From an uncultured Candidatus Saccharibacteria bacterium (lineage in GTDB: Bacteria > Patescibacteriota > Dojkabacteria > J137), in assembly GCA_964620955.1 (NCBI GenBank), contig CAZUKH010000001.1, positions 124,593 through 188,592 of the forward strand: a DNA stretch of 64,000 nucleotides. Reading direction: 5' to 3'. Shown piece by piece: positions 1,703-24,392 of this stretch (positions are counted from its first letter, which is position 1; each line of letters starts with the position of its first letter). The notes under the pieces were generated by a model. It worked only from the letters and a program-made list of their open reading frames with translations. It was not told the origin of the DNA and made no database searches. Position numbers and translations under genes: made by a program.

Positions 1703-2722
1703 CTACTTTTCTGTTTTTCTAACCAATTCTCTGTCTGCTTCAACCATTATTCTTACAAGCTCATCAATATCTGTTTTTGGCTCCCAACCTAGTTTGTTTT
1801 TAGCCTTTGCACTATTTCCTCTTAAATACTTTAAGTCTGAAGGCCTCTTAAATCTATCATCCATTTGTACATGATTTGACCAGTCTTTAATACCAATTAC
1901 CGCAAAAGCTTTTGTAAGGAAATCTTCTATGCTGTAAGTGCTCCCAGTTGCAATTACAAAATCTTCCGGATTTTCTTGCTGAAGCATAAGCCACATCATT
2001 TCAACATAGTCTTTAGCAAAACCCCAATCTCTTTTGGAGTCAAGGTTCCCAAATTTCACAATCGAATCCTTTAACAAAGGTTCTTTTTCCTCGTTACAAA
2101 CTTTTGAAGTTTTTATACCTTCGGCAATACAAGCTACAGCATAAGATATTTTTCGTGTGACAAATTCATGGCCTCTTCTTGGCGACTCATGATTAAAAAG
2201 AATGCCCGAGCAGGCAAAAGTACCAAAACTTTCACGGTAATTTTGAGTCATATGATGTGCATAAAGTTTTGCAATTGCATAAGGGCTAGTAGGAATCATC
2301 TTTGTATTTTCATCTAAAAACTCTTCTGGGTTGTTGCCATACATCTCGCTCGAAGAAGCTTGATAAAATTTCGCATCAGGCTTATGGTTTCTTACAGCCT
2401 CAAGCATTCTTACTGCACCTAGTCCTGTAACTTCTGCAGTTAATATTGGTTGAGGCCAGCTTGACTTCACGAATGATTGGGCTGCAAGGTTATATACTTC
2501 GTTTGGCTGAAAATCTATAACTGCTCTATCCAAAGAACCTTGATCCAATAAATCCCCATCGTAGATTTTTACTTTTCCCCTAATTCCTTCAATATAGTGT
2601 GTGTTGGGTACGCTAAGTCTTCTTACAATTCCTGCCACCTCATAGCCTTTTGCTATTAAAAACTCTGCAAGGTAAGATCCATCCTGCCCTGTTATACCTG
2701 TTATAAGTGCTTTTTTTGACAT
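1703..2722 (-). CDS. gmd: GDP-mannose 4,6-dehydratase
   Basis: [50 protein letters not shown]. Canonical Gmd signatures. Confidence 0.9.
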   Translation of the reverse strand: [339 protein letters not shown]

Positions 2723-2825
2723 ATAGTAAATATTTAATCTTTTGAGCTACAATTTATCATCTAAACTAATTCCGCTCAACTTTTTAAATATTGTCAAAGA
2801 TAAAATCTCCAGCTAGAATGTAGGT

Positions 2826-5471
2826 ATGTATATTCAAAGACGATTTTTGTTATTAACTGTTATTCTCCTGACTATTGCAAGCTTTGCACTTGTGATTACT
2901 GGGCCTGCATATGCTCAGGAAGAGCCAACAAGCAGCCTCGATGTGACTTCTTTTCTTACAAGCCAAGAATTTAGTGTTGACATAAACCCTGATGCTCTAG
3001 CATATGCATTTGAGTGGAATAAAGGTGGTTATTTTGAGTTTAAGACGAATGGCTCTGTGAATGAATACGAACATATCGAAGAGATGACTGATGGGCCTGA
3101 GAACTTATCAAACAAATCCATATCGGAACTTTACTATATTAATGAAAGTGAAACACAAATATTTATTAAAAACTCTTCTGCATCGGAACTTAAAATAAAA
3201 TGGGTTTGGTTAACTCAGCCCCAAAAAGACAAGGGAGATCAAAGGATATCCTCAAATAACCTAACTAACCCTACCCACGTTAACCTGGATTCAGGCGCTA
3301 ATTATTCAACACTTCCGATTGTTTCACGAAGCATGTGGGGAGCCAACGAAGAATCCTCTTCTGTTTGGCCACCAGAGTATAAAGCAGTAGAAAGATTTAT
3401 TATTCATCATACAGTCATTACCAATTCCAACTTCATGACTGCAGTTCAGCTTATTTATAACTACCATACTTATACAAATGGATGGGGTGATATAGGCTAC
3501 AATTATTTAATTGACCCTAATGGGGTAATTTATGAAGGCAGGAAAGGTGGAGATAATGCTATAGGTGCGCATGCATATATGCAAAATGGACGCTCAATGG
3601 GTATTTCGTTTATTGGAGACTTTTCTTATGTTCTTCCATCTAATACTGCACTTGCAAGTTTTAGAAGTTTTATTGCCGAAAAGTCCATTTTGCATGGTAT
3701 ACCACTTGTTTGGGGGGAAACAGTTTTTGGCCATAGAGATATGCCGGAGAATTCGACAGCATGTCCTGGGAACGCCTTTTATGCAGCACTCCCAACAATT
3801 ATTTCCGAAGCAAATTCAGTTAGAGCCAATTTATCTTCCGGAACTTTGAGTCAGGCATATGCAAGTATGATTAACAATACTAATAATTACTACGATAACA
3901 GGTTAACTATTAAATTTGTGAATTCTCAATTAACTGAGAACGAAGCTTTAGCCTTACTCCCCAAAAACAGTGGCATTACTGATGTTGATTATGCTAATGG
4001 AGAAGCATTTATTACATTTGAAAGCTTTACATGGTATGGAGGCGAATACTTTGATGATACTCTAGATAGAGTAAAATTCGCCTATTTGATTTTTCTTTTA
4101 GACCCAAACATTCAAAGTATTGAACTAGCTCCTGAAGGGCCTTATGATTATGGAGATGCACCCGAAACCTATTCAACATCTACTGCATCACATTTAAGAA
4201 CAGCACAAAGCCCTTACTTTGGAAGCGGGGTTGATGGTGAAGAGTCTGCTTTGGTAGATACAGCTGCTACAGGAGATGATAATAGAAGAACCACAGCCCT
4301 TGCAGATGATGAAGATGGCGTAAGTTACACAGAGCTTAGAGGAGGGTTTACAGGTAATATAACTCTTTCGATTGGAGCTGCTGGGTATGTAAAGCTATGG
4401 GTAGATTTTGGCAATGATGGTACTTTTGCAGAGGCTTCAGACAAAGTATACGACGGCTACCTTGAAATAGGACTTCATGAAGTTGATGTAGCTGTACCTC
4501 AAACAATAAGCCAAGGAACCACATTTGCTAGAGCGAGAATAAGCAGTCAAAATACATTTAGTTACAATGATGCAGCTATTGATGGGGAGGTTGAAGATAT
4601 TAGAGTTTGGATTCATGAATGGTCAGACCTTTTTGACTCTGTGGGAAATACAAATCAGCCTGTTGCTACTCAAAAGTTTGGAGACAAATACTTCCAGGTG
4701 CTTTCGTCTAATACTTGGCCATACGTGATTTATGTTAGAAACTCAAGTGACGGACATAACTGGACTCAGTGGAGTGCTGAGTTAAACGGCTACAGTCACA
4801 GAGAACCATCACTAGCAATATTCCAGAATAGGCTTTATTTGTCGGTTTCAGGGACTGATAATAGAATTTATACCAAATCTATGGACATGGGTGGTACATG
4901 GGATAGCAAATGGGCCGAGACTGGCGGGACAACACTTGAAGGTGTTGGAATTGGAAGTGGGAACCTAAATGGTACAGAAATGCTTTTTCAAATAGTTAAG
5001 AGTAGTAACGATACAAATATTTACGTTCGACAAACTAAAGATGGAGTTTTTGATTACAATTCACCCGAAGAAAAGTGGAAAATCTTTGGAGGATTTACTA
5101 ATAAAAAGCCATCCTTATCTTCAATTAATGGAAAGTTAATTGCCACAGTAGCAGGTACGGATAGTAGAATTTACTTACGAACATCGATAGATGGTGTTAA
5201 CTGGTCTAACTGGGCTGAAAAGGGTGGGCTTACTTTTGAGGCGCCAGTAATTAGTTTAGAAAATAATCTTCTTTACCAAACTGTTAAAAGCATTGAAGAC
5301 AATTCTTTGTATTATAGGTCTACTTCCGACCTGCAAAACTGGACACCCTGGAAACAAATAAAAATCAACGCAGATAAGGCAGGGGCAATCATAATTTCTA
5401 ATAGCGTTCTTGGCATATACGTGCCTTCGGGCAGCTTGCTAAGGTATTCTACTTCGGTAAAATCTCTTTAG
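2826..5471 (+). CDS. Secreted multidomain protein: signal peptide + N-acetylmuramoyl-L-alanine amidase (PGRP/Amidase_2) + GEVED domain + BNR/sialidase-like beta-propeller repeats
   Basis: Signal peptide MYIQRRFLLLTVILLTIASFALVITGPAYAQ. Amidase_2 signatures: IIHHT, DIGYNYLIDPNGVIYEGR, GAHA, C-terminal ACPG. GEVED signature: YDYGDAPETY ... FGNDGTF. Repeated S-x-D-G-x-x-W motifs (SSDGHNWTQW, SMDMGGTWDSKW, SIDGVNWSNW, STSDLQNWTPW). Confidence 0.8.
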   Translation: MYIQRRFLLLTVILLTIASFALVITGPAYAQEEPTSSLDVTSFLTSQEFSVDINPDALAYAFEWNKGGYFEFKTNGSVNEYEHIEEMTDGPENLSNKSISELYYINESETQIFIKNSSASELKIKWVWLTQPQKDKGDQRISSNNLTNPTHVNLDSGANYSTLPIVSRSMWGANEESSSVWPPEYKAVERFIIHHTVITNSNFMTAVQLIYNYHTYTNGWGDIGYNYLIDPNGVIYEGRKGGDNAIGAHAYMQNGRSMGISFIGDFSYVLPSNTALASFRSFIAEKSILHGIPLVWGETVFGHRDMPENSTACPGNAFYAALPTIISEANSVRANLSSGTLSQAYASMINNTNNYYDNRLTIKFVNSQLTENEALALLPKNSGITDVDYANGEAFITFESFTWYGGEYFDDTLDRVKFAYLIFLLDPNIQSIELAPEGPYDYGDAPETYSTSTASHLRTAQSPYFGSGVDGEESALVDTAATGDDNRRTTALADDEDGVSYTELRGGFTGNITLSIGAAGYVKLWVDFGNDGTFAEASDKVYDGYLEIGLHEVDVAVPQTISQGTTFARARISSQNTFSYNDAAIDGEVEDIRVWIHEWSDLFDSVGNTNQPVATQKFGDKYFQVLSSNTWPYVIYVRNSSDGHNWTQWSAELNGYSHREPSLAIFQNRLYLSVSGTDNRIYTKSMDMGGTWDSKWAETGGTTLEGVGIGSGNLNGTEMLFQIVKSSNDTNIYVRQTKDGVFDYNSPEEKWKIFGGFTNKKPSLSSINGKLIATVAGTDSRIYLRTSIDGVNWSNWAEKGGLTFEAPVISLENNLLYQTVKSIEDNSLYYRSTSDLQNWTPWKQIKINADKAGAIIISNSVLGIYVPSGSLLRYSTSVKSL

Positions 5472-14312: not shown

Positions 14313-14747
14313 ATGTCACTCACAGTATTAGGTGCTAGTGTCAATTTGCTTGCTGTATTTGGTGCAGCGGTCCTTTATATGGTTTTAAGTACTATTTGGT
14401 ATTCTCCTTCTGTTTTAGGTAAAAGATGGGCTAAGCTTGTTGGCTTAAAAGAAAAAGATATGAACCAATGGGATACAAAAATGATGATAACAATGCTTGT
14501 AACCTTTGTTGGCGCTGTAGTTGTTGCGTTATTTTTAGGTATGATTGTTGAATATGTTCGAATTGCAACTGGTTATGCTGAAGTATTAAACGGCATAATA
14601 ACTGGACTTATTGCATGGGTAATTTTTGCTGTGTTCAGCCTTGCAAACACCCTTTATGCAAGAGAATCGGCCGAAAGGTGGGCAATAGATGCAGCAAACG
14701 TGCTTATTTCTTTACTTGCAGCTGGCGTGATAATTGCTGTTCTTTAG
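14313..14747 (+). CDS. DUF1761-family membrane protein
   Basis: MSLTVLGASVNLLAVFGAAVLYMVLSTIWYSPSVLGKRW matches the DUF1761 N-terminal pattern. ATG at 14313 preferred over GTG at 14262. Confidence 0.55.
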   Translation: MSLTVLGASVNLLAVFGAAVLYMVLSTIWYSPSVLGKRWAKLVGLKEKDMNQWDTKMMITMLVTFVGAVVVALFLGMIVEYVRIATGYAEVLNGIITGLIAWVIFAVFSLANTLYARESAERWAIDAANVLISLLAAGVIIAVL

Positions 14748-16111
14748 TCGTTAATTACAACTGATTTAACGTTTGTAAATTCAAGTAGTCCGTATTCTGC
14801 TAGTTCTCGTCCTATTCCTGATTTTTTGCTTCCCCCAAAAGGAAGCTCAGGAGTAGAACGTACTACTTCATTAACATAAACATTCCCTACATTTAGTTTG
14901 GGTATTAGTTTTTTGGCTCTTTCAATATTCTCAGTCCATATTGACGCTCCAAGACCTAGCTTGGTTGCATTTGCGATTTCTAAAGCTTCGTCTTCCTCTT
15001 TAAAAGCAAACACAGTTGCTATTGGCGCAAAGGTTTCTTCATTAAAAATTTTCATACTTGAATTTACTTGGGTTAGTATTGTTGGCTGCATAAAAAACCC
15101 AGGCACATCTTTTTTACTCCCGCCAGTAATAAGTTTTGCCCCTTTGTTTACTGCTTCGTTTACAAGTTGAATATGTGTTTCTAAACTCTCTAGACTTGAT
15201 AGCGGTCCCATTTCGCAGGTTTCTTTAAGCGGATCTTCTACAATTACCTGCTCAAACTTTTGTTTAAGACCTTTTACAAACTCATCATACTTTGTTTCGT
15301 GTACAATAAACCTTTTTGCTGCGTTGCAGCTTTGCCCTGCATTTCGTAATCTCGACTTTGATGCATTGTCAATCACATCGTCTATGTCGGCATCTTCAAG
15401 CACAATAAATGCGTCGTTGCCTCCAAGCTCTAAAGCTACTTTCTTAATTTCCTGACCAGCTATTGAAGCAACTGAAGCTCCTGCTTTTTCGCTGCCTGTT
15501 AAAATAACTCCTTCAATAATAGGGTTTCTTATTATTCTTTCGACTTTCGATGAAGATATTAACAATGTTTGCATTACTTCACTTCCAAATTTTGCTTTAT
15601 CAAAAAGTTCTTGTATATTTAATGCTGTGCGACATACGTTTGAAGCATGTTTTAAAACTACAGTATTACCTGCAAGTATTAAAGGTATAATTGTACGTAA
15701 AGCCTGCCAGTAAGGGAAATTCCAGGGCATAATAGTAAGAATTGGCCCAAGTGGTTCGTACCTCACTTCACTATACTCATATTTAGTTTTAACTTTTTTA
15801 GCTTTTAACATTTCTTCAAAATTTTGAATGTAATAGTCAATCATTTCTACTACTTTTTGTATTTCCTGCCGCGATTGTACAATTGGCTTTCCGGTCTCAA
15901 GTGTCATTTGGCGTGAAAAAGTTTCTAAAGATTCTAAGATAATGTTTTTCAAGTTGATGACTTTTTCTTTTCTTATGTTTAATGAGGTTTTTTTCCAGGT
16001 ATTAAAAGCCTCAAGTGCAAGTTTTATCTTTGAATCTATTTCCAGTTCCTGCAGTTCTTCAAAATCTTCAATAAGAATTCCATTTGAAGGATTAATTGAC
16101 TTTAACTTCAT
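14744..16111 (-). CDS. NAD(P)+-dependent aldehyde dehydrogenase (succinate-semialdehyde dehydrogenase-like)
   Basis: LELGGNDAFIV (catalytic Glu), NAGQSCNAAKR (catalytic Cys), GSEKAG. Confidence 0.85.
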   Translation of the reverse strand: MKLKSINPSNGILIEDFEELQELEIDSKIKLALEAFNTWKKTSLNIRKEKVINLKNIILESLETFSRQMTLETGKPIVQSRQEIQKVVEMIDYYIQNFEEMLKAKKVKTKYEYSEVRYEPLGPILTIMPWNFPYWQALRTIIPLILAGNTVVLKHASNVCRTALNIQELFDKAKFGSEVMQTLLISSSKVERIIRNPIIEGVILTGSEKAGASVASIAGQEIKKVALELGGNDAFIVLEDADIDDVIDNASKSRLRNAGQSCNAAKRFIVHETKYDEFVKGLKQKFEQVIVEDPLKETCEMGPLSSLESLETHIQLVNEAVNKGAKLITGGSKKDVPGFFMQPTILTQVNSSMKIFNEETFAPIATVFAFKEEDEALEIANATKLGLGASIWTENIERAKKLIPKLNVGNVYVNEVVRSTPELPFGGSKKSGIGRELAEYGLLEFTNVKSVVIND

Positions 16112-16180: not shown

Positions 16181-16663
16181 ATGAATACACATCTTGATAT
16201 GTTAAATGTAGAAGAGGGAAATGCAGAAAATACTACCCCGCACTCTCTACCTCCGGAATTTGTTTTTCCATATCCTAATCCAGGAGATCTGCGATCGGTC
16301 TTTATTAACATCTTTTCATATAGGCCCGAACAGATTATTTATCTTGGTGCTCACGAATCTCTTGTTAACCTAACAACCAAATTGCAAAATCTATATTACG
16401 AAGGGAGTCATCCATCACATGGAAGCGAAATTTACATGGGCAGCCAGGTAATCATATCACCTGCTAATGAAGTACCAACACTGTTAGGGAATATAACTAG
16501 AGGAACCCAAATTAGAAAAGTCCTTGTAATTATTGAGGGAGAGGATTCTCCTTCAAATCCTAACTACAAAGCTCTTCTTAAGCAAATTTTAAATGGTCCA
16601 ACATTACAAATGCCTTCCAGCCTTTGTATTACGGTAATGTACACAAATGCTTTTCGAGCATAA
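16181..16663 (+). CDS. Hypothetical protein
   Basis: 160-aa ORF. No recognisable motif. Confidence 0.4.
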   Translation: MNTHLDMLNVEEGNAENTTPHSLPPEFVFPYPNPGDLRSVFINIFSYRPEQIIYLGAHESLVNLTTKLQNLYYEGSHPSHGSEIYMGSQVIISPANEVPTLLGNITRGTQIRKVLVIIEGEDSPSNPNYKALLKQILNGPTLQMPSSLCITVMYTNAFRA

Positions 16664-16731: not shown

Positions 16732-17478
16732 ATGAAAGCAAAAACACTCAGTATTGTAATTCCTTCTTATAACGAATCAAAGACCCTCGAAGAGCTTGTA
16801 GGTAAAGTATTAGCAGTCAAACTGCCATTTGGTTTTTCTAAAGAAATAATCATTGTAAATGATGCATCTAAAGACAATTCACTAGAAATTATGAGAAAAC
16901 TCGCGGCTAAAAACAAAGAAATAATCGTATTAGATAATCCTAAAAACCTTGGTAAAACACAAACAGTAAGAAAAGGTTTTATGAAAACCTCTGGTGAAGT
17001 TGTAGTTGTACAAGATGCGGACTTAGAGTATGAGCCAGAAGAACTAAAAGAATTGTTGGAACTTATGATAAACGAAAATCTTGATGTAGTTTACGGCAAC
17101 AGATTTGGTAAAAAAAACAAAGTAATTTATTGGAAAAATTATTATGGTAATAAAGGTATTTCGTTTATTTCCAACATTTTCACTTACCCAAGAATAAGAA
17201 AATTCATTCCGGACATGGAAGTTTGCTACAAAATGGTTAAAGGTGAAATAATTAGAGATATAGCCCCAAAAATTACTGCAAAAAGCAACTTTGGTTTAGA
17301 ACCCGAGCTTACTGCACGGCTTGCAAGGTACAAAAAAGATGGTAAGAGACTAAAATTTGGGATTGTGCCAATTAGTTACTTTGCAAGAAGCATTGAAGAA
17401 GGTAAAAAAATGAAAGCGTTTAAAGATGGATTTAAGGCGCTTAAAGAAATTATTCGCTATAATTTGGGTAGACAATAG
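16732..17478 (+). CDS. Glycosyltransferase family 2 (polyprenyl-phosphate sugar transferase-like)
   Basis: LSIVIPSYNES, IIVNDASKDNS, VVVVQDADLEYEPEEL (DxD). Confidence 0.8.
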   Translation: MKAKTLSIVIPSYNESKTLEELVGKVLAVKLPFGFSKEIIIVNDASKDNSLEIMRKLAAKNKEIIVLDNPKNLGKTQTVRKGFMKTSGEVVVVQDADLEYEPEELKELLELMINENLDVVYGNRFGKKNKVIYWKNYYGNKGISFISNIFTYPRIRKFIPDMEVCYKMVKGEIIRDIAPKITAKSNFGLEPELTARLARYKKDGKRLKFGIVPISYFARSIEEGKKMKAFKDGFKALKEIIRYNLGRQ

Positions 17479-17497
17479 CACAATAAAACCCCGTAAC

Positions 17498-17962
17498 TTA
17501 CTTCTTTATATAAACAATATATTTATATATAAAGAAGTTTATAAGCATTTGTGTTCCTGCAGTAAATAAGTTTGCTATAGTTGAAAGCGCAGCTTCGGAA
17601 AGATCTATTCCTAAAATCCTTTTTAAATCATAATAAAGAGAGTAAATAAATGCGCCCACAAAAATATTCATAACAAAAACCAAGGTCATTCTTAAGGCTT
17701 GATTACGCATTTTTCCTTCGGTGGCTTTAAAACTCCACTGTCTATTTATAAAAAAGACAAATATACTTCCGAATACTCCTGAAACAATTTTGGCAGAATA
17801 AATAAGTCCAAATATTTTTATACCCTGCCCCAGCCCTAAAATTTGAACAATAAAAAGAAGTACTAAAGTATCTACAACAAAACCACCAATTCCTGTAACA
17901 AAATATTTGGCGAACTGTTTAATAATCTCTTTACTACCAAGTTTTTTAAGCTTTTGTTTCAT
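17498..17962 (-). CDS. GtrA-family membrane protein (polysaccharide synthesis / flippase accessory)
   Basis: QFAKYFVTGIGGFVVDTLVLLFIV. About 150 aa with 4 TM helices, typical GtrA. Confidence 0.7.
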   Translation of the reverse strand: MKQKLKKLGSKEIIKQFAKYFVTGIGGFVVDTLVLLFIVQILGLGQGIKIFGLIYSAKIVSGVFGSIFVFFINRQWSFKATEGKMRNQALRMTLVFVMNIFVGAFIYSLYYDLKRILGIDLSEAALSTIANLFTAGTQMLINFFIYKYIVYIKK

Positions 17963-18011
17963 AGGTAAAAATTATAACAGCGACCATTTATAAAAGAAAG
18001 CATATTTGCAC

Positions 18012-18040
18012 TTGACTACTATACCCCAGTAAGGTATAGT
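18012..18040 (+). promoter_or_regulatory. Sigma-70-like promoter (TTGACT-17-TATAGT) overlapped by a perfect 8-bp inverted repeat ACTATACC-N7-GGTATAGT (putative CsoR-family operator)
   Basis: Seen in sequence directly upstream of the CsoR-like gene. Resembles the GC-cored pseudo-palindromes bound by CsoR/RcnR regulators. Confidence 0.5.
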
Positions 18041-18046
18041 TAGTAT

Positions 18047-18304
18047 ATGGATAACAAATGCGACCAACTAGTAAATTCAGCTAAAAGAATCGAGGGGCAG
18101 CTTAGAGGCATCCAAAAGATGATTCTTGAGGGGAAAGACGGCAAATTAATTCTTACCCAAGTAACAGCAGCGCGGGCTGCGCTTTCAAGGCTAGCAATTG
18201 ATTTGCTCAAAGATGAATCCCGAGAGTGTTTAAATGCAAAGACAAAAAAAGCTAAATCTGATAAATTTGAAGAGTTGGTAAGCTCGCTTTTTAAACTTAC
18301 TTAA
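18047..18304 (+). CDS. CsoR/RcnR/FrmR-family (DUF156) transcriptional repressor, atypical ligand set
   Basis: AKRIEGQLRGIQKMI...ILTQVTAARAAL matches the CsoR core. The canonical Cys/His positions are K and R/E. Only the C-terminal Cys (RECLNAK) plus an N-terminal Cys5 are present. Confidence 0.75.
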   Translation: MDNKCDQLVNSAKRIEGQLRGIQKMILEGKDGKLILTQVTAARAALSRLAIDLLKDESRECLNAKTKKAKSDKFEELVSSLFKLT

Positions 18305-18322
18305 TTTATTATTATTTTATAA

Positions 18323-18640
18323 ATGTCAAAACCCGAAGAACTTACAGCAGAGAACTTTAATGAAAAAATCAAGCAGGGAAATGTCCTTGTAGATTTTTGG
18401 GCTCCTTGGTGCGGCCCTTGCCAAATTATTGGTCCAATAATTGAACAAGTAGCTGAAGAAATGAAAGACAAGCTAAACGTTTACAAACTCAATGTTGATG
18501 AGGCACAGCAAATAGCTATGACCTATGGAGTAATGAGCATCCCAACGATGATAATGTTTAAAGACGGTCAACCTGTAGGCAGAGAAATTGGTGCGATTCC
18601 AAAGGCCGCAGTTGTAAATTTTGTAAGTAAGCATATTTAG
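18323..18640 (+). CDS. trxA: Thioredoxin
   Basis: WAPWCGPCQ active site. 105 aa. Confidence 0.95.
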   Translation: MSKPEELTAENFNEKIKQGNVLVDFWAPWCGPCQIIGPIIEQVAEEMKDKLNVYKLNVDEAQQIAMTYGVMSIPTMIMFKDGQPVGREIGAIPKAAVVNFVSKHI

Positions 18641-18646
18641 TAGATT

Positions 18647-19579
18647 ATGGATAGTAATAAATTTGATTTGATAATTGTAGGCTCAGGACCGGCAGGTTTA
18701 ACAGCTGGTATTTATGCATCAAGAGCCAATTTAAAAGTTTTGTTACTAGCTGGCGAACAGTGGGGAGGCCAGCTAATGAAAACAACTGTTGTTGAAAACT
18801 ATCCTGGGTTTCCTGAAGGAATAAACGGTCCTGAACTTATGACAAAAATGAAGGATCAAGCAGAAAAATTTGGAACAAATATAAAATATGAAAATGTTTT
18901 AAGTGTTGATTTAAATGCACAAGAAAAGAAAGTAACTACCGCAAATGGAGATTATTTCGCTAGGGCAGTAATATTAGCTACCGGGTCGGAACCTCGTACT
19001 CTAGGTATTCCAGGTGAAGATAAGTTTTATGGTCGCGGGGTATCTACATGCGCTACGTGCGATGCTGCTTTTTTTAAAGATAAAATTGTAGCAGTAGTAG
19101 GAGGAGGAGATAGTGCAATGGAAGAATCAACATTTTTAACAAGATTTGCTTCTAAAGTTTATCTTATCCATAGACGCGATGAGTTTAGAGCAAGCCCAAT
19201 AATGCAAGAAAGGGCAAAGTCAAACAGCAAAATTGAATTTATGCTCAATTCAGAAATTAAAAAAATAATTGGAAATGAAGTAGTTGAAAAAATCTTAGTA
19301 TTAAATAATAAAGATAATAGCCAAAAAGAAATTAATGTAAACGGGGTATTTTTAGCAGTTGGACATATTCCAGTTACAGGCATATTTAAAGACCAGCTTC
19401 CTTTAAACGACACTGGCTATGTTATGCCTATAAATGCATTTTCTGTAAAAACAAATGTGAAAGGAGTTTTTATTGCAGGTGAAATACAGGACTATATTTA
19501 TAAACAGGCAATTACCACTGCGGCTGATGGCTGTAAAGCAGCACTTGAAGCACAAAAGTTTTTAGCCGAAAACGAGTAA
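18647..19579 (+). CDS. trxB: Thioredoxin-disulfide reductase
   Basis: IIVGSGPAGLTAGIYASRANL (FAD), CATCD redox-active site, VVGGGDSAMEE (NADPH). Confidence 0.95.
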   Translation: MDSNKFDLIIVGSGPAGLTAGIYASRANLKVLLLAGEQWGGQLMKTTVVENYPGFPEGINGPELMTKMKDQAEKFGTNIKYENVLSVDLNAQEKKVTTANGDYFARAVILATGSEPRTLGIPGEDKFYGRGVSTCATCDAAFFKDKIVAVVGGGDSAMEESTFLTRFASKVYLIHRRDEFRASPIMQERAKSNSKIEFMLNSEIKKIIGNEVVEKILVLNNKDNSQKEINVNGVFLAVGHIPVTGIFKDQLPLNDTGYVMPINAFSVKTNVKGVFIAGEIQDYIYKQAITTAADGCKAALEAQKFLAENE

Positions 19580-19691
19580 AATCCTTCAATCAATTTACTA
19601 GTAAAAAAATAAAAGCATCAGAACCTTACGAAGACCACTCTTTATTTCTTTTCCAAATTTAACTATATTGATTTAGTTAAAGAATAGAGGT

Positions 19692-22600
19692 TTGTTTTTG
19701 CGTTTTTTAAATAAAACAATACGGCTCAAAGAATGGCAGCTGGATATTTTTTCAGCTTTTGTTTTGCTGGGTGGTATTTTCGCTGGCGTAATTCTTGCTG
19801 TTGCAGGTTTAATTCCATTAATTAATGCTGATGTTACTAATTTAATTACGCTTACCTCAGATGCATCGTTTAACACTGGTAGTTATGCTAGTACAAATAT
19901 AACCGGAGCGGGAGATGGTGCCTCTGTACAGTTAACACCTGGCGGCGCTGGATGGCTTGACCCAGCATGGACTTACCGACGGGATATTACAATTAACAAC
20001 CCTAATACTTCTACTCTAACTGAGTACCAGGTACTTATTACTCTTAATACTAGTAACTTTAATTATGCAAATGTTCAAAATGATTGTGATGATATTCGTT
20101 TTGCCAATAATGCTGGCCAACTTTTAAGCCATTATCAGCTTGTGTGTAATACAAGCGGTGTAAGTCAATTTTGGGTTAAAGTAGATTCACTTGCAGCAAG
20201 TTCCGATACTACAATACAGGTTTATTTCGGCAATGCTTCCGCAACTAGCGGTTCAAACGAAGTGGCAACCTTTTCATACTCATCAGCTAAAACTGTTGGT
20301 TATATAATAAATGACAGGGTTAATGAAGCATCAGTAATCAGTCTTATTGCAAATAATCAAATTATTCATAATTCACAAACTTTTAATCTTAATGAATATG
20401 AAACTAATTACTTTCCTTTAGTTAACAGAAGTTTACCAATACAAGCTAAAGGATTATTTAATTTTAAAGATCCTGATACAGATAATGATACATTTGTACC
20501 GGTTTCATTTGCAGGTACAAACTTTAGATTTACAACAAGAGAAAGTGGAACAGATACCGAAGATTTTTGGATGATTAGTCCATGGGGTAGTGCTACAGTA
20601 ACAATAGCCGGTGATGGCGGGGCAGCATGCCAAACACTTACAGTTACAGGCACAGCTGCGGTTAACGGGTCTGGCTGTAATTTAGCAGCGGGTATTACTT
20701 TTAAAATAACCAGTACAATACCAATTCTTGTTTTTTACGACGGGAATGCTAATCAAATTTCTCCAATTATGCCAGTTGAAAATGGACCATGGTACGGAGT
20801 GCCAAGCAGGACTCTAATGATTTCAGCAGCCGATAGTGGAGCAAACACAACTTACTTTAGATCCGACAACGCAAATGCTTACAATAATGCAATTGCAGCA
20901 AACAGGGATTTAACCCAAGCTACAGCATACGCGTCTTATGCTTCGGGACCCGCACTAAAAATAACAGGAGATAACCCAATTTTTGCATCAGCATGGAACG
21001 ATGGTAACGGGAATGACGGCGTGTCATTTATGCCTTGGAATAAACTTGGCACGCGATTTGGAGGTGCAACTGTTGTTGACTATATAGCTATTGCCTCACC
21101 CTACCCTGCTACTTGCCGTGTTTACAATGCATTAACTCAAACTCTAGTCGCAAGTGGTACAGCATCATCATTAAATTCAGAAGTTTATATGCTTGGGTTT
21201 GGTACTGGAAATTCTAATACTTATGTTAACGGTCCGTGGTATGTTGATTGTGACAAGCCTGTGTACCTTTACGCTGAAATGTCTGCAGACGCAGAAACGC
21301 AAGTTTATACATATGAGCAAATGAGGCAGTTTGTTTACCCAACGCCTGCAATGAATTCAACACTTGGTAACGAAGAAGGCTCAATTCCTGGAAGCGGCAC
21401 ATGGGAATCAGCAGGAAATCAAAATGCAATAGATTTAAAGTGGAATGGAGGATGGGGAGATGGCACTGGAACATCAGTGGGTTTTGAAGCAAGTGTTTCT
21501 AATGTAGGAGCAAATGCAAATATTGCATTTCAAATTAGGGCAGCATCTAGCCTGGCCAACTTAACATCAACAAGCTATCAAACTTTAGGCGTAGCAAGTT
21601 CAGGTACCAGTTTTACAGTTACTAAAGATGAGCTTGACACTCTTGGCGTACCTACTGGTTTAAATGGTAGGTACATTCAAATTAAAGCAACACTCAACTC
21701 AATTGATGGTTTTATAAACCCAGTACTTGAAAGTTTTGGGGTAAGATACCAAGCTGATAACTCAGGTCCATCTGTAAACGCTTCGGGAATTCAGCTCTTT
21801 AAAAGTTCAACTGGCGGTGAAGTCACAACAGACAACTGGCTTAATAATATTGCTCCATACTTTTCATGGAGTGAAGGCTCAGATACACAATCTGAAATTG
21901 GTGGGTTTTGCTTGTACATAGGAAACGATATTAATGGTGACCCTGCAATTACTGAGGGTATTTTGGGTGATAGTGGTTTTAGCGTACCTGGTGCAGACTG
22001 CCCTTTTCAAATAGAAACACCTTATATTGATTTTGCTACAACTGCTTTTAGAGGAAGCCAATGGCTTGAATCTGACACAATAAAGTACTATATGAAGGTT
22101 AAGTCAATCGACCGGGCAGGGAACGAATATCTTGGAACTGCAGCTTCATTTAGCTTTTACTATGATGATACGCCACCTACAACTCCATTCTTCATTTCTT
22201 TACCTTCGGGATTTGTTTCTTCAAAAGAAGTTACTATAACCTGGCCAACAGTAGGAAACGAGCGGGCTAAAGATGACCATTCACAGCTTGCTGGCTTGCA
22301 GTACAGAATAGGAAATAATGGTGTGTGGTATGGAGATTTGCATAATGGAGCTGAAAATCAAACTGACTTATTAGTTAATGATGGACATTACGTTACAATT
22401 GACCCTTATGATTTTGATGCGCTAAGCCAAGAGGTTAACTTGATTTACTTTAGGAGTTGGGATAACGCTGGAAATATATCTACTGCAACAGTTAGCGGAA
22501 CAATAAAGATTAACTCTAATGCACCAAGTAGCCCACAAAATCTTACAGTCACGCCATTAACCAATACAGTAAACTCCTATGCTTTTGAATGGGACCCACC

Positions 22601-24392
22601 TAGTAGTTATACCGGCCTTTTGAGTGGAATTACTTATTGTTACACTGTTAACACATTACCTTCGGCAGGTACCTGTATTTTTACAGGGCCAGGTGTAACA
22701 AACCTTGCTGCAGATGCATATGCTAACCTTCCAACAACTAATACACTTTACCTAGTAGCTAAAGATGAAGCTGGAAACATTAATTACTCAACATATACCC
22801 AGGTAGATTTTACGTATACAGGAACCGCTCCTGGTATTCCGCGTAATATTGAAGTTACAGATATTTCAATAAAAGATACTGCAAACTGGAGACTTTCTGT
22901 AACTTGGGAAATTCCCGAAAATATTGGTGCTGGTGTGAGCTCATATAAAATTTATAGATCTACCCAAGACTTAAGCTGTACAAACGATATTGAATCTTTT
23001 AGCCTTATTGATACTATTAAGGGTTCTACCTTTTACGCAAATACTGGTTTAAGCCAACAAACTTACTATTACTGCCTTAGAGCTTGTGATTCGGCAAACA
23101 ACTGCTCTGCTCCTTCTGAAGTTGCATCTGGATTTCCTGACGGAAGATTTACTAGCCCAGCTGAATTAATTTCAGGGCCAACTATAACAAACCTTTCTAC
23201 TCGCAGAGCAACTATAAACTGGGTAACAGTTCGAGGTTCCGATTCAAAAGTAGCATATGGAATTGCTCCTGACACATATTTTGAAGAAGAGCCATCAACT
23301 TCTACCCAGGTAAACGACCACGTTATAAACCTTTCGGGCTTACAGCCAGGAACCACCTACTACTACAGAGCAAAATGGACCGATGAAGATGGTAATACAG
23401 GAATAAGCCCTGAAAAATCTTTTACTACAGACCCTGCTCCTGTAATTAGAGATGTTTCGGTGGCAAGAGTTGGATTAGACAATGCTGTAATTAGGTTTAC
23501 AGCAAGAGGTGCTTATGGAGTTCAGCTTCGTTATGGGCTTACCACAAGTTTTGGTGGAGCTATTGAAATTGACTCTTCACCTGTTGAAAGCACTTACACT
23601 GCAATAATCGAAAATTTGCAAGACGGCACAAATTACTTTTACACAATCAACCCTTTTGATGGTGAAGGATTTACATACGAAGGAACTGTTTTAAATTTTG
23701 CAACTCTTCCAAGACCTCAAATAACAAATGTAGATATTGAAGAACAAAAAGGAAATGCACAACCTACAATAAAAATTACCTGGGAAACAAATACCCCTAC
23801 AAACTCAATTGCTACTTACTTTCCTGTAACTAACCCTGCATTTACTCGAGATCAAGTAGATATTAATTTAAAAGATGGTAAACATGAAATGACTTTAGCC
23901 GGACTGGAAGCAGAAACAACTTACAACCTGATTGTGAAAGCAGTTGATGCTTTTGGTAACCAGGCACAATCAGATACTATTAGCTTTACAACTGCAACAG
24001 ACAGCAGACCACCAGAAATTTTTAATTTAAAAGTAGAAGGCACTATTACTAACTTTTCGGAAAGTAGCACTGGCTCCGACCAGCAAAAAGCACAACTTAT
24101 TGTTTCGTGGGATACTGATGAACCTGCAACAAGTCAAGTAGAGTTTGGACAAGGAAGTGCCTCAGTTTATACACAAAAAACACAACAAGATCAAAATCTT
24201 ACTTTCAACCATTTAGTTGTAATTTCAAACCTTACACCTTCGCAGGTTTATAGCCTTCGAGTGATTTCTGCTGATAGCGCTGGCAATGAGGGTTTGTCGG
24301 ACAATTCTGTTACTATAACTCCTAAGGTTGTAAGTTCAGCTTTAGACTTAGTGTTTTCAAATCTACTTGAAATATTTGGTTTTTTGCGATGA
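19692..24392 (+). CDS. Giant (1566 aa) membrane-anchored surface protein: N-terminal TM, DUF2341 domain, long array of Fn3-like / purple-acid-phosphatase-N-like beta-sandwich repeats
   Basis: TTG start. TM segment FSAFVLLGGIFAGVILAVAGLI. DUF2341 signatures: WxYRRDITINN...DCDDIRFANNAGQLLSHYQL...FWVKVDSL...IQVYFGN. Repeated TxxW..., GTTYYYR and YY-rich beta-sandwich motifs. Low-complexity S/T/G/N-rich linkers. Confidence 0.7.
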   Translation: MFLRFLNKTIRLKEWQLDIFSAFVLLGGIFAGVILAVAGLIPLINADVTNLITLTSDASFNTGSYASTNITGAGDGASVQLTPGGAGWLDPAWTYRRDITINNPNTSTLTEYQVLITLNTSNFNYANVQNDCDDIRFANNAGQLLSHYQLVCNTSGVSQFWVKVDSLAASSDTTIQVYFGNASATSGSNEVATFSYSSAKTVGYIINDRVNEASVISLIANNQIIHNSQTFNLNEYETNYFPLVNRSLPIQAKGLFNFKDPDTDNDTFVPVSFAGTNFRFTTRESGTDTEDFWMISPWGSATVTIAGDGGAACQTLTVTGTAAVNGSGCNLAAGITFKITSTIPILVFYDGNANQISPIMPVENGPWYGVPSRTLMISAADSGANTTYFRSDNANAYNNAIAANRDLTQATAYASYASGPALKITGDNPIFASAWNDGNGNDGVSFMPWNKLGTRFGGATVVDYIAIASPYPATCRVYNALTQTLVASGTASSLNSEVYMLGFGTGNSNTYVNGPWYVDCDKPVYLYAEMSADAETQVYTYEQMRQFVYPTPAMNSTLGNEEGSIPGSGTWESAGNQNAIDLKWNGGWGDGTGTSVGFEASVSNVGANANIAFQIRAASSLANLTSTSYQTLGVASSGTSFTVTKDELDTLGVPTGLNGRYIQIKATLNSIDGFINPVLESFGVRYQADNSGPSVNASGIQLFKSSTGGEVTTDNWLNNIAPYFSWSEGSDTQSEIGGFCLYIGNDINGDPAITEGILGDSGFSVPGADCPFQIETPYIDFATTAFRGSQWLESDTIKYYMKVKSIDRAGNEYLGTAASFSFYYDDTPPTTPFFISLPSGFVSSKEVTITWPTVGNERAKDDHSQLAGLQYRIGNNGVWYGDLHNGAENQTDLLVNDGHYVTIDPYDFDALSQEVNLIYFRSWDNAGNISTATVSGTIKINSNAPSSPQNLTVTPLTNTVNSYAFEWDPPSSYTGLLSGITYCYTVNTLPSAGTCIFTGPGVTNLAADAYANLPTTNTLYLVAKDEAGNINYSTYTQVDFTYTGTAPGIPRNIEVTDISIKDTANWRLSVTWEIPENIGAGVSSYKIYRSTQDLSCTNDIESFSLIDTIKGSTFYANTGLSQQTYYYCLRACDSANNCSAPSEVASGFPDGRFTSPAELISGPTITNLSTRRATINWVTVRGSDSKVAYGIAPDTYFEEEPSTSTQVNDHVINLSGLQPGTTYYYRAKWTDEDGNTGISPEKSFTTDPAPVIRDVSVARVGLDNAVIRFTARGAYGVQLRYGLTTSFGGAIEIDSSPVESTYTAIIENLQDGTNYFYTINPFDGEGFTYEGTVLNFATLPRPQITNVDIEEQKGNAQPTIKITWETNTPTNSIATYFPVTNPAFTRDQVDINLKDGKHEMTLAGLEAETTYNLIVKAVDAFGNQAQSDTISFTTATDSRPPEIFNLKVEGTITNFSESSTGSDQQKAQLIVSWDTDEPATSQVEFGQGSASVYTQKTQQDQNLTFNHLVVISNLTPSQVYSLRVISADSAGNEGLSDNSVTITPKVVSSALDLVFSNLLEIFGFLR

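Follow-up and report, generated by a model that had tools for sequence, protein, structure and literature searches.

A CstR-like repressor with a promoter-overlapping operator heads a trxA-trxB operon in CPR bacteria: a probable thiol switch

In a sequence similarity network (SSN) study of 32,476 PF02583 proteins, the CsoR family was divided into clusters that include sensors of copper, nickel/cobalt, formaldehyde and persulfide, with clusters 6-9 uncharacterized (PMC8643695). The persulfide sensor CstR binds its cst operator in the reduced form with K about 1e8 per M and is released by persulfide or tetrathionate, and the core of the Streptococcus mitis cst operator (ATATACCCTTATGGGGTATAT / TATACCCTTATGGGGTATA) has a 6-N7-6 layout (PMC8643695). 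Both CstR and TTHA1953 of Thermus thermophilus lose DNA binding upon Cys-Cys crosslinking (PMC8643695; PMC10318464). According to a 2024 review, no CsoR-family sensor specific for H2O2 has been characterized (PMC11672702), thioredoxin receives no mention in the main text of the SSN study (PMC8643695), and our literature searches returned no paper that links trxA/trxB to a regulator of the CsoR family. Here, we describe a candidate for such a regulator, encoded directly upstream of trxA and trxB in a stretch of 64,000 nucleotides (the window) of contig CAZUKH010000001.1 (positions 124,593 to 188,592; assembly GCA_964620955.1), from an uncultured Candidatus Saccharibacteria bacterium placed by GTDB in the Dojkabacteria.

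We consider it fairly probable that this 85-residue protein is a non-metal, dithiol repressor of the CsoR superfamily, of CstR lineage, which would act as an autoregulated thiol-oxidation switch of the thioredoxin system. Thiol switches are coupled to the expression of thioredoxin genes by RsrA-SigR (Streptomyces trxBA) and by Spx (Bacillus trxA/trxB). A further case is RexT, reported to be an ArsR-family cysteine-oxidation sensor of Nostoc trxA2 that is reset by thioredoxin (PMC8960804). These systems follow the same logic as the circuit proposed here, but they belong to unrelated families with unrelated DNA-binding modes, none of them being of the CsoR family. The features of the locus, in coordinates of the window, are as follows:

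18012-18017, plus strand: -35 hexamer TTGACT (promoter scan; promoter match 10/12)
18035-18040, plus strand: -10 hexamer TATAGT (promoter scan), with a 17-nt spacer to the -35 hexamer
18018-18040, strandless: putative operator, an inverted repeat ACTATACC-N7-GGTATAGT that overlaps the promoter
18020-18038: 19-bp core of the operator, TATACC-N7-GGTATA, here TATACCCCAGTAAGGTATA, conserved in relatives
18047-18304, plus strand: gene of the CsoR/CstR-family repressor, 85 aa (PF02583 Trns_repr_metal, E 1.5e-19)
18323-18640, plus strand: trxA, thioredoxin, 105 aa, with WCGPC (PF00085, E 2.8e-30; TIGR01068, 129 bits, cutoff 96.8)
18647-19579, plus strand: trxB, thioredoxin-disulfide reductase, 310 aa, with CATC (Pyr_redox_2; TIGR01292, 402 bits, cutoff 343)

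The initial annotation had placed trxA and trxB closely behind the regulator gene, which is borne out by gaps of 18 nt (regulator to trxA) and 6 nt (trxA to trxB) and by TIGR01068 and TIGR01292 scores above their cutoffs; both trx genes are without an obvious Shine-Dalgarno sequence. At 90% identity, each of the three proteins clusters with no other in a collection of 15 billion proteins, and the source lineage appears to be sparsely sampled, with Dojkabacteria as the closest relatives.

The assignment of the 85-aa protein to the CsoR/RcnR family is firm, with a PF02583 match of 70.6 bits (cutoff 22.8) over residues 6-79. Its AlphaFold2 model (pLDDT 88.5) consists of three helices (residues 3-27, 32-62 and 67-84), and Foldseek gives TM-scores of 0.8-0.9 to 7mq1, 5fmn, 4adz, 4m1p, 5lcy and 2hh7. 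Streptococcus pneumoniae CstR (SpCstR, 7mq1) is both the best sequence match (E 6e-10) and the best fold match, and InrS and CsoR are the other top structural matches. HMMER alignments to 7mq1, 5fmn, 4m1p and 4adz set the residues at the W-X-Y-Z ligand positions that define the sensor types of the family:

18059-18061, plus strand: codon of Cys5, first turn of helix 1, the relocated second cysteine
18140-18142, plus strand: codon of Gly32, X position, equivalent to Cys30 of SpCstR, Cys36 of Mycobacterium tuberculosis CsoR and Cys53 of InrS
18215-18217, plus strand: codon of Glu57, Y position, His in Cu/Ni sensors and the 'wedge' Asn55 in SpCstR
18227-18229, plus strand: codon of Cys61, Z position, end of helix 2, invariant in alignments A1, A3 and A4

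With Gly32 at X, Glu57 at Y and Cys61 at Z, the Cu(I) ligand set is not intact. The replacement of canonical ligands that had been read from the sequence thus stands in its main part, in that there is no Cys-His-Cys set, Glu57 occupies Y and only Cys61 is kept; the residue at X, however, is not the proposed Lys but Gly32, which lies between Asp31 and Lys33. The extra cysteine noticed at position 5 is real. None of the residue sets that define the described sensor types is matched in full: the x-C-H-C set of Cu(I) CsoR is replaced by Gly32/Glu57/Cys61; the H-C-H-H or H-C-H-C motif of RcnR/InrS is absent, since the N-terminus (MDNKC) is without His, X is Gly and Y is Glu, and the RcnR model of NCBIfam scores 24.9 against a cutoff of 138; and of the x-C-x-C pair of CstR, Cys61 is present at Z, X is Gly32 and the second cysteine stands at position 5. 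In FrmR, Pro2 and Cys35 (P-C-H-x) form a methylene bridge, and here residue 2 is Asp and X is Gly32 (NCBIfam 24.3 against 133). By its residues at the defining positions the protein is therefore not a CsoR sensu stricto, RcnR, InrS, FrmR or CstR, and it probably works most like CstR. Of the two non-metal relatives to which it had been likened, CstR is upheld by the closest structure and the operator layout, and the analogy to FrmR was rejected, as Pro2 and Cys35 are both absent. Cys9 of SpCstR was rejected as the counterpart of Cys5; it aligns with Ser11 and is described as non-conserved and dispensable.

The likeness to cluster-10 CstR proteins (S. pneumoniae, S. mitis, Enterococcus faecalis) extends from the three-helix PF02583 fold, the lack of a His at Y and the retained Cys at Z to the TATACC-N7-GGTATA operator layout known from S. 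mitis. From this analogy the same mechanism may be expected, in which the reduced form is DNA-bound and a Cys-Cys crosslink releases it. In contrast to CstR, the X Cys is Gly32 and the second Cys lies in the first turn of helix 1, the wedge Asn55 is an invariant Glu in the clade to which the window protein belongs, and the regulon differs: CstR controls sulfurtransferases, CoA persulfide reductase, persulfide dioxygenase and sulfide:quinone oxidoreductase (SQR), whereas this clade is associated with trxA-trxB in hosts of the Candidate Phyla Radiation (CPR).

The clade was delimited from a HMMER search of 1.84 billion representatives, which gave 913 matches; a word-indexed protein search with the single sequence as query found only the protein itself. 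The top matches have in common an N-terminal Cys, the lack of one at X, the motif LK-x-E-S-x-x-C and a C-terminal FEELV..FK-x-T (alignment A1), and a profile built from them collects about 34 proteins at E <= 1e-18, distinct from the mass of x-C-H-C CsoRs. Members with a source name come from Candidatus Dojkabacteria or Kerfeldbacteria (CPR/Patescibacteria). Gly17, Gln18, Met25, Gln38, Glu57 and Cys61 are invariant across the clade (alignment A4, 34 sequences), and the cysteines fall into three arrangements (alignment A3). Group A, which includes the window protein, has a Cys in the first turn of helix 1 and none at X; group B has neither an N-terminal Cys nor one at X and carries C-x-x-C at Z/Z+3; group C has Cys at X and Z (x-C-E-C), as in CstR, and this x-C-E-C form is that of the rest of the clade. 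A second cysteine is thus always present in the clade, at one of three alternative positions. As Glu57 and Cys61 are invariant while the second Cys sits at X, in helix 1 or at Z+3, the pattern argues for two-cysteine chemistry rather than metal binding. In one group C locus (L014/L015, 3259-3945), the thioredoxin that follows the regulator is 228 aa long with two thioredoxin domains, and the regulator carries an additional Cys three residues ahead of the X Cys (DCRDC).

A cysteine table covering all 263 retrieved proteins places the relocation of the second Cys largely within this clade. The X Cys is absent in 36 of the 263, of which 24 have an N-terminal Cys, 5 have CxxC and 7 have another pattern. 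In the 24, the N-terminal Cys stands 12 residues before Gly17 (16 in two, owing to a four-residue insertion), and 23 of them belong to the trx-linked clade. Within the close subgroup, Cys5 is invariant (alignment A5), in a fixed register in all full-length members. Two of the 7 others are N-terminally truncated (P0008, P0071) and five are scattered outside the trx-linked clade. In a neighbour-joining tree of the core region, groups A and B nest inside the x-C-E-C clade, which is itself sister to the x-C-N-C proteins of the S. pneumoniae CstR type; for so short a protein, and with no support values, this placement is weak evidence.

These data bear on the possibility that the protein senses through a single cysteine, or senses aldehydes or other electrophiles, such that Cys61 alone would respond (by S-thiolation, alkylation or a FrmR-like adduct) and Cys5 would be incidental. 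Cys61 is indeed the sole site residue that is invariant family-wide, the distant relatives P0031, P0047 and P0074, which lie outside the trx-linked clade, apparently have the Z Cys only, and an aldehyde dehydrogenase gene (PF00171, E 1e-135; 14744-16111, minus strand) lies about 2 kb upstream of the regulator on the opposite strand. However, Cys5 holds a fixed register in all full-length members of the subgroup, the FrmR determinants Pro2 and Cys35 are missing, and the aldehyde dehydrogenase gene is not conserved beside the module elsewhere, so that we regard this explanation as very improbable.

The promoter TTGACT-17-TATAGT and the perfect inverted repeat ACTATACC-N7-GGTATAGT across it were both recovered exactly where the initial annotation had put them, and the promoter is the top-scoring promoter-like site within 17400-20000 in the promoter scan. 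The last four bases of the operator core are the first four of the -10 hexamer TATAGT, whose end lies 6 nt from the regulator ATG with no Shine-Dalgarno sequence in between. Because the -10 hexamer is so near the ATG and no Shine-Dalgarno sequence intervenes, the regulator-trxA-trxB mRNA is probably leaderless. As a generic inverted repeat the palindrome is not unusual, since 2 perfect 8-N7-8 repeats are observed in the window against 1.4 expected from shuffles. By contrast, chance would give the core TATACC-N7-GGTATA 0.007 times in a window and about 5e-6 times in a 60-nt upstream region, and it is observed once; being unique in the window, rarely expected and recurrent upstream of orthologues, it is far beyond chance. 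The CsoR-family operator form ascribed to the palindrome is likewise substantiated, as TATACCCCAGTAAGGTATA has the 6-N7-6 layout of a CstR-type operator (ATATACC...GGTATAT), identical to that of the S. mitis cst operator. Further regulon members in the window were considered and rejected: four near-matches to the operator with 2 mismatches occur, which is the chance frequency, and the two inspected fall inside ORFs.

Genomic context was sampled at 12 independent related loci (group A, 7; group B, 2; group C, 3), most of which belong to CPR/Dojkabacteria, 11 of them from contig look-ups and one (L020) a metagenome match from a scan with 7 close sequences. A thioredoxin gene lies immediately downstream of the regulator on the same strand in 12/12 loci and is followed by a TrxB-type reductase gene in 11/12; in L020, a 121-aa gene (2721-3086) stands between trxA and trxB in an otherwise identical module. 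The flanking genes vary by locus (MFS transporter, sigma factor, malic enzyme, RadC, CsrA, IF-2 and others), so that what is conserved is the module of three genes.

The operator recurs with the module. The 19-bp element was found with 0-2 mismatches in 11/12 loci, so that the palindrome is indeed present upstream of orthologues, and in a fixed promoter register. Seven related loci have TATACC-N7-GGTATA exactly, mostly as TATACCCC-N3-GGGGTATA, three have it with one mismatch, and L020 has TATACT...AGTATA, a symmetric C>T/G>A change in both arms, as would be predicted for a protein site with dyad symmetry. In 9/10 group A/B loci including the window, exactly 2 nt separate TTGAC[AT] from the element; in these groups the last four bases of the element double as TATA of the -10 hexamer, with the ATG 7-10 nt after the element. 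With these spacings, operator, promoter and start codon are locked in one register. The -10 hexamer ends 5-8 nt before the ATG, with no Shine-Dalgarno sequence, in the window and in L002, L004, L005, L007, L008, L009, L010, L012 and L020.

The comparison with Cu(I) CsoR (M. tuberculosis, B. subtilis, S. lividans, G. thermodenitrificans) shows what is shared across the family and what is not. Family, fold and the position as autoregulated first gene are the same, as is an operator made of a GC tract between AT-rich inverted repeats. The differences lie in the ligands (x-C-H-C in Cu(I) CsoR, Gly at X and Glu at Y here) and in the neighbours, since the copA/copZ genes of the copper sensors are replaced by trx genes in the window and the 12 related loci. 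A scan of genome contigs provided a contrast case, in which the sole relative found (L001) is a classical copper CsoR with copA and copZ. That the window protein is a metal sensor with a non-canonical Cys5/Glu57/Cys61 site ('C-x-E-C' in W-X-Y-Z notation), inducing thioredoxin against thiophilic metal stress, would accord with a family best known for its Cu and Ni/Co sensors and with the participation of an N-terminal residue in the sites of RcnR and InrS (PMC8643695; PMC11672702). RicR, likewise a metal sensor, is the top NCBIfam model, although its 44 bits fall short of the cutoff of 175. Both the X Cys and the Y His are missing, a second Cys at three positions under the same context is hard to fit to one conserved coordination geometry, and no copA, copZ, rcnA or nrsD is adjacent in the related loci, in contrast to the true CsoR of L001. 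We therefore think it highly unlikely that the protein is a metal sensor.

A more serious contender is that the protein is a CstR specific for persulfide or other reactive sulfur species (RSS), with Trx/TrxB serving chiefly as a reductase of protein and low-molecular-weight persulfides in sulfidic, anoxic habitats. The repressor and its thiol-switch mechanism would be retained, and only the inducer and the physiological role would differ. Cluster-10 CstR provides the closest solved relative and has the same operator layout, the neighbour-joining tree puts the clade next to SpCstR-type proteins, and the CPR hosts come, to judge from source names, from samples that were largely anoxic. In addition, thioredoxin-like proteins of Staphylococcus aureus are reported to reduce protein persulfides (PMC6196236). 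Against this, none of the 13 loci has an adjacent gene for a sulfurtransferase/rhodanese, persulfide dioxygenase, CoA persulfide reductase or SQR, trxA-trxB standing where a sulfide/RSS regulon would be found in CstR systems (window and 12 loci). Moreover, the attacking X Cys of CstR is absent here and the wedge Asn has become an invariant Glu. On balance, persulfide specificity seems rather unlikely, if well short of negligible.

The proposal that an autoregulated redox circuit governs the trx operon gains comparative support from the gene order (12/12 loci, with trxB in 11/12) and from the second-Cys pattern, the inducer and the chemistry being putative. In the mechanism that we infer from these features, which takes in repression, the oxidation switch, the pairing of the cysteines, the inducer and the reduction of the repressor by thioredoxin, the reduced repressor would bind the 19-bp dyad TATACC-N7-GGTATA, most likely as a tetramer. 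As the dyad fills the -35/-10 spacer and the beginning of the -10 hexamer, the bound repressor would block RNA polymerase and repress the leaderless regulator-trxA-trxB transcript. Oxidation of Cys5 and of Cys61, which adjoins the invariant Glu57, with a disulfide or a per-/polysulfide bridge between the two as the presumed product, would lower DNA affinity and derepress the operon. The induced TrxA and TrxB would then restore thiol redox balance and would probably re-reduce the repressor, closing a negative feedback loop.

The relocated cysteine may be accommodated by the established W-X-Y-Z topology of the family, on which the following argument is built. In the four-helix bundle, helix 1 appears to start at the Cys61 end, where position X of the partner chain and Z+3 also appear to lie, and since helix-1 N-terminus, partner X and the residues past Z converge on the end of helix 2, there would be three ways to place a second thiol near Cys61. 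The N-terminus of a helix, where Cys5 lies in the AlphaFold2 model, generally lowers the pKa of a thiol. The X Cys of CstR is similarly placed, at the beginning of helix 2. As Cys5 is on the same chain as Cys61, the pair is possibly intra- rather than inter-protomer. A narrower version of the thiol-switch reading, which we hold tentatively as quite possible, is that the clade consists of CsoR-family sensors of reactive oxygen species or disulfide stress, controlling a leaderless, self-contained three-gene thioredoxin homeostat that CPR bacteria with reduced genomes have kept, and in which the sensing disulfide has been re-engineered at least twice. An inter-protomer X-Z' pair would have given way to the intra-protomer Cys5-Cys61 pair and, separately, to CxxC, with operator and regulon held constant throughout.

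Several points weigh against a thiol-oxidation switch as we propose it. The context is that of 12 sampled loci, and one of them, L016, has a different palindrome and no trxB. There (L016/L017, 2980-3000), the regulator P0170 (Candidatus Dojkabacteria, x-C-E-C) is preceded by AACTATACTCTAGTACAGTA, which abuts the ATG, and is followed by a thioredoxin gene. The centre of the window operator is the most degenerate of the set (CCCC...GG instead of CCCC...GGGG). By helix register, Cys5 appears to be displaced inwards by about 5 residues from the classical W position, so that helix 1 may have to unwind locally for a Cys5-Cys61 disulfide to form. A metal site made of Cys/Glu/Cys is also conceivable in principle.

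The site AACTATACTCTAGTACAGTA of L016 resembles that of T. thermophilus TTHA1953, TACNNTAC-N4-GTANNGTA, the spacing of which differs from that of the window operator (PMC10318464). TTHA1953 is likewise a CsoR-family protein whose DNA binding needs reduced cysteines, and the sox regulon that it controls starts with a gene for a thioredoxin-fold protein, soxW (PMC10318464). In contrast to the window protein, TTHA1953 keeps the X/Z pair (Cys39/Cys68) (PMC10318464), and it controls periplasmic sulfur oxidation, not cytoplasmic TrxA/TrxB.

The surroundings of the operon can be described briefly. The upstream neighbours of the regulator are gtrA-like and GT2 genes, which are convergent. At 17501-17537, where the gtrA-like ORF has its 3' end facing the GT2 glycosyltransferase gene, there is a long AT-rich inverted repeat (CTTCTTTATATA...TATATAAAGAAG). 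It is the sole other perfect 8-N7-8 repeat of the window and possibly acts as a bidirectional terminator. A 160-aa ORF (16181-16663, plus strand) without a Pfam match adjoins the aldehyde dehydrogenase gene, and neither of the two is kept beside the trx module in other loci. Downstream, 112 nt past trxB, starts the gene of a 1566-aa protein (19692-24392) with an N-terminal membrane segment, DUF2341, fibronectin type III repeats and purple-acid-phosphatase-N-like repeats; a scan of the interval between trxB and this gene found no terminator-like site. The GC content of the window is 33-39% throughout, and its 64 kb contain no Rfam match and no tRNA or rRNA.

The evidence from comparative sequence analysis supports a clade of CstR-derived, putative thiol-switch repressors in CPR bacteria that would be dedicated to the trx operon, with a relocated sensing cysteine. 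No new principle is involved, yet the circuit is clean, conserved and experimentally tractable, and it belongs to organisms that are little understood. The CsoR family is a model of how one small scaffold gains inducer specificities, namely for Cu, Ni/Co, formaldehyde and persulfide. To our knowledge, its characterized members control metal efflux and aldehyde or sulfur detoxification, and none is set over the core thioredoxin system; a non-sulfur redox member would thus fill an acknowledged gap. A clade tied 1:1 to trxA-trxB, with an invariant Glu and Cys and three positions of the second Cys, offers a natural experiment on oxidant specificity and allosteric coupling. The small size of its parts, an 85-aa protein and a promoter-operator of 35 bp, would make the circuit easy to study in vitro and reusable as a redox-responsive genetic switch. 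CPR/Patescibacteria have, as far as we know, very few transcription factors and few alternative thiol-redox systems, and the circuit would be among the few regulatory circuits defined in these bacteria.

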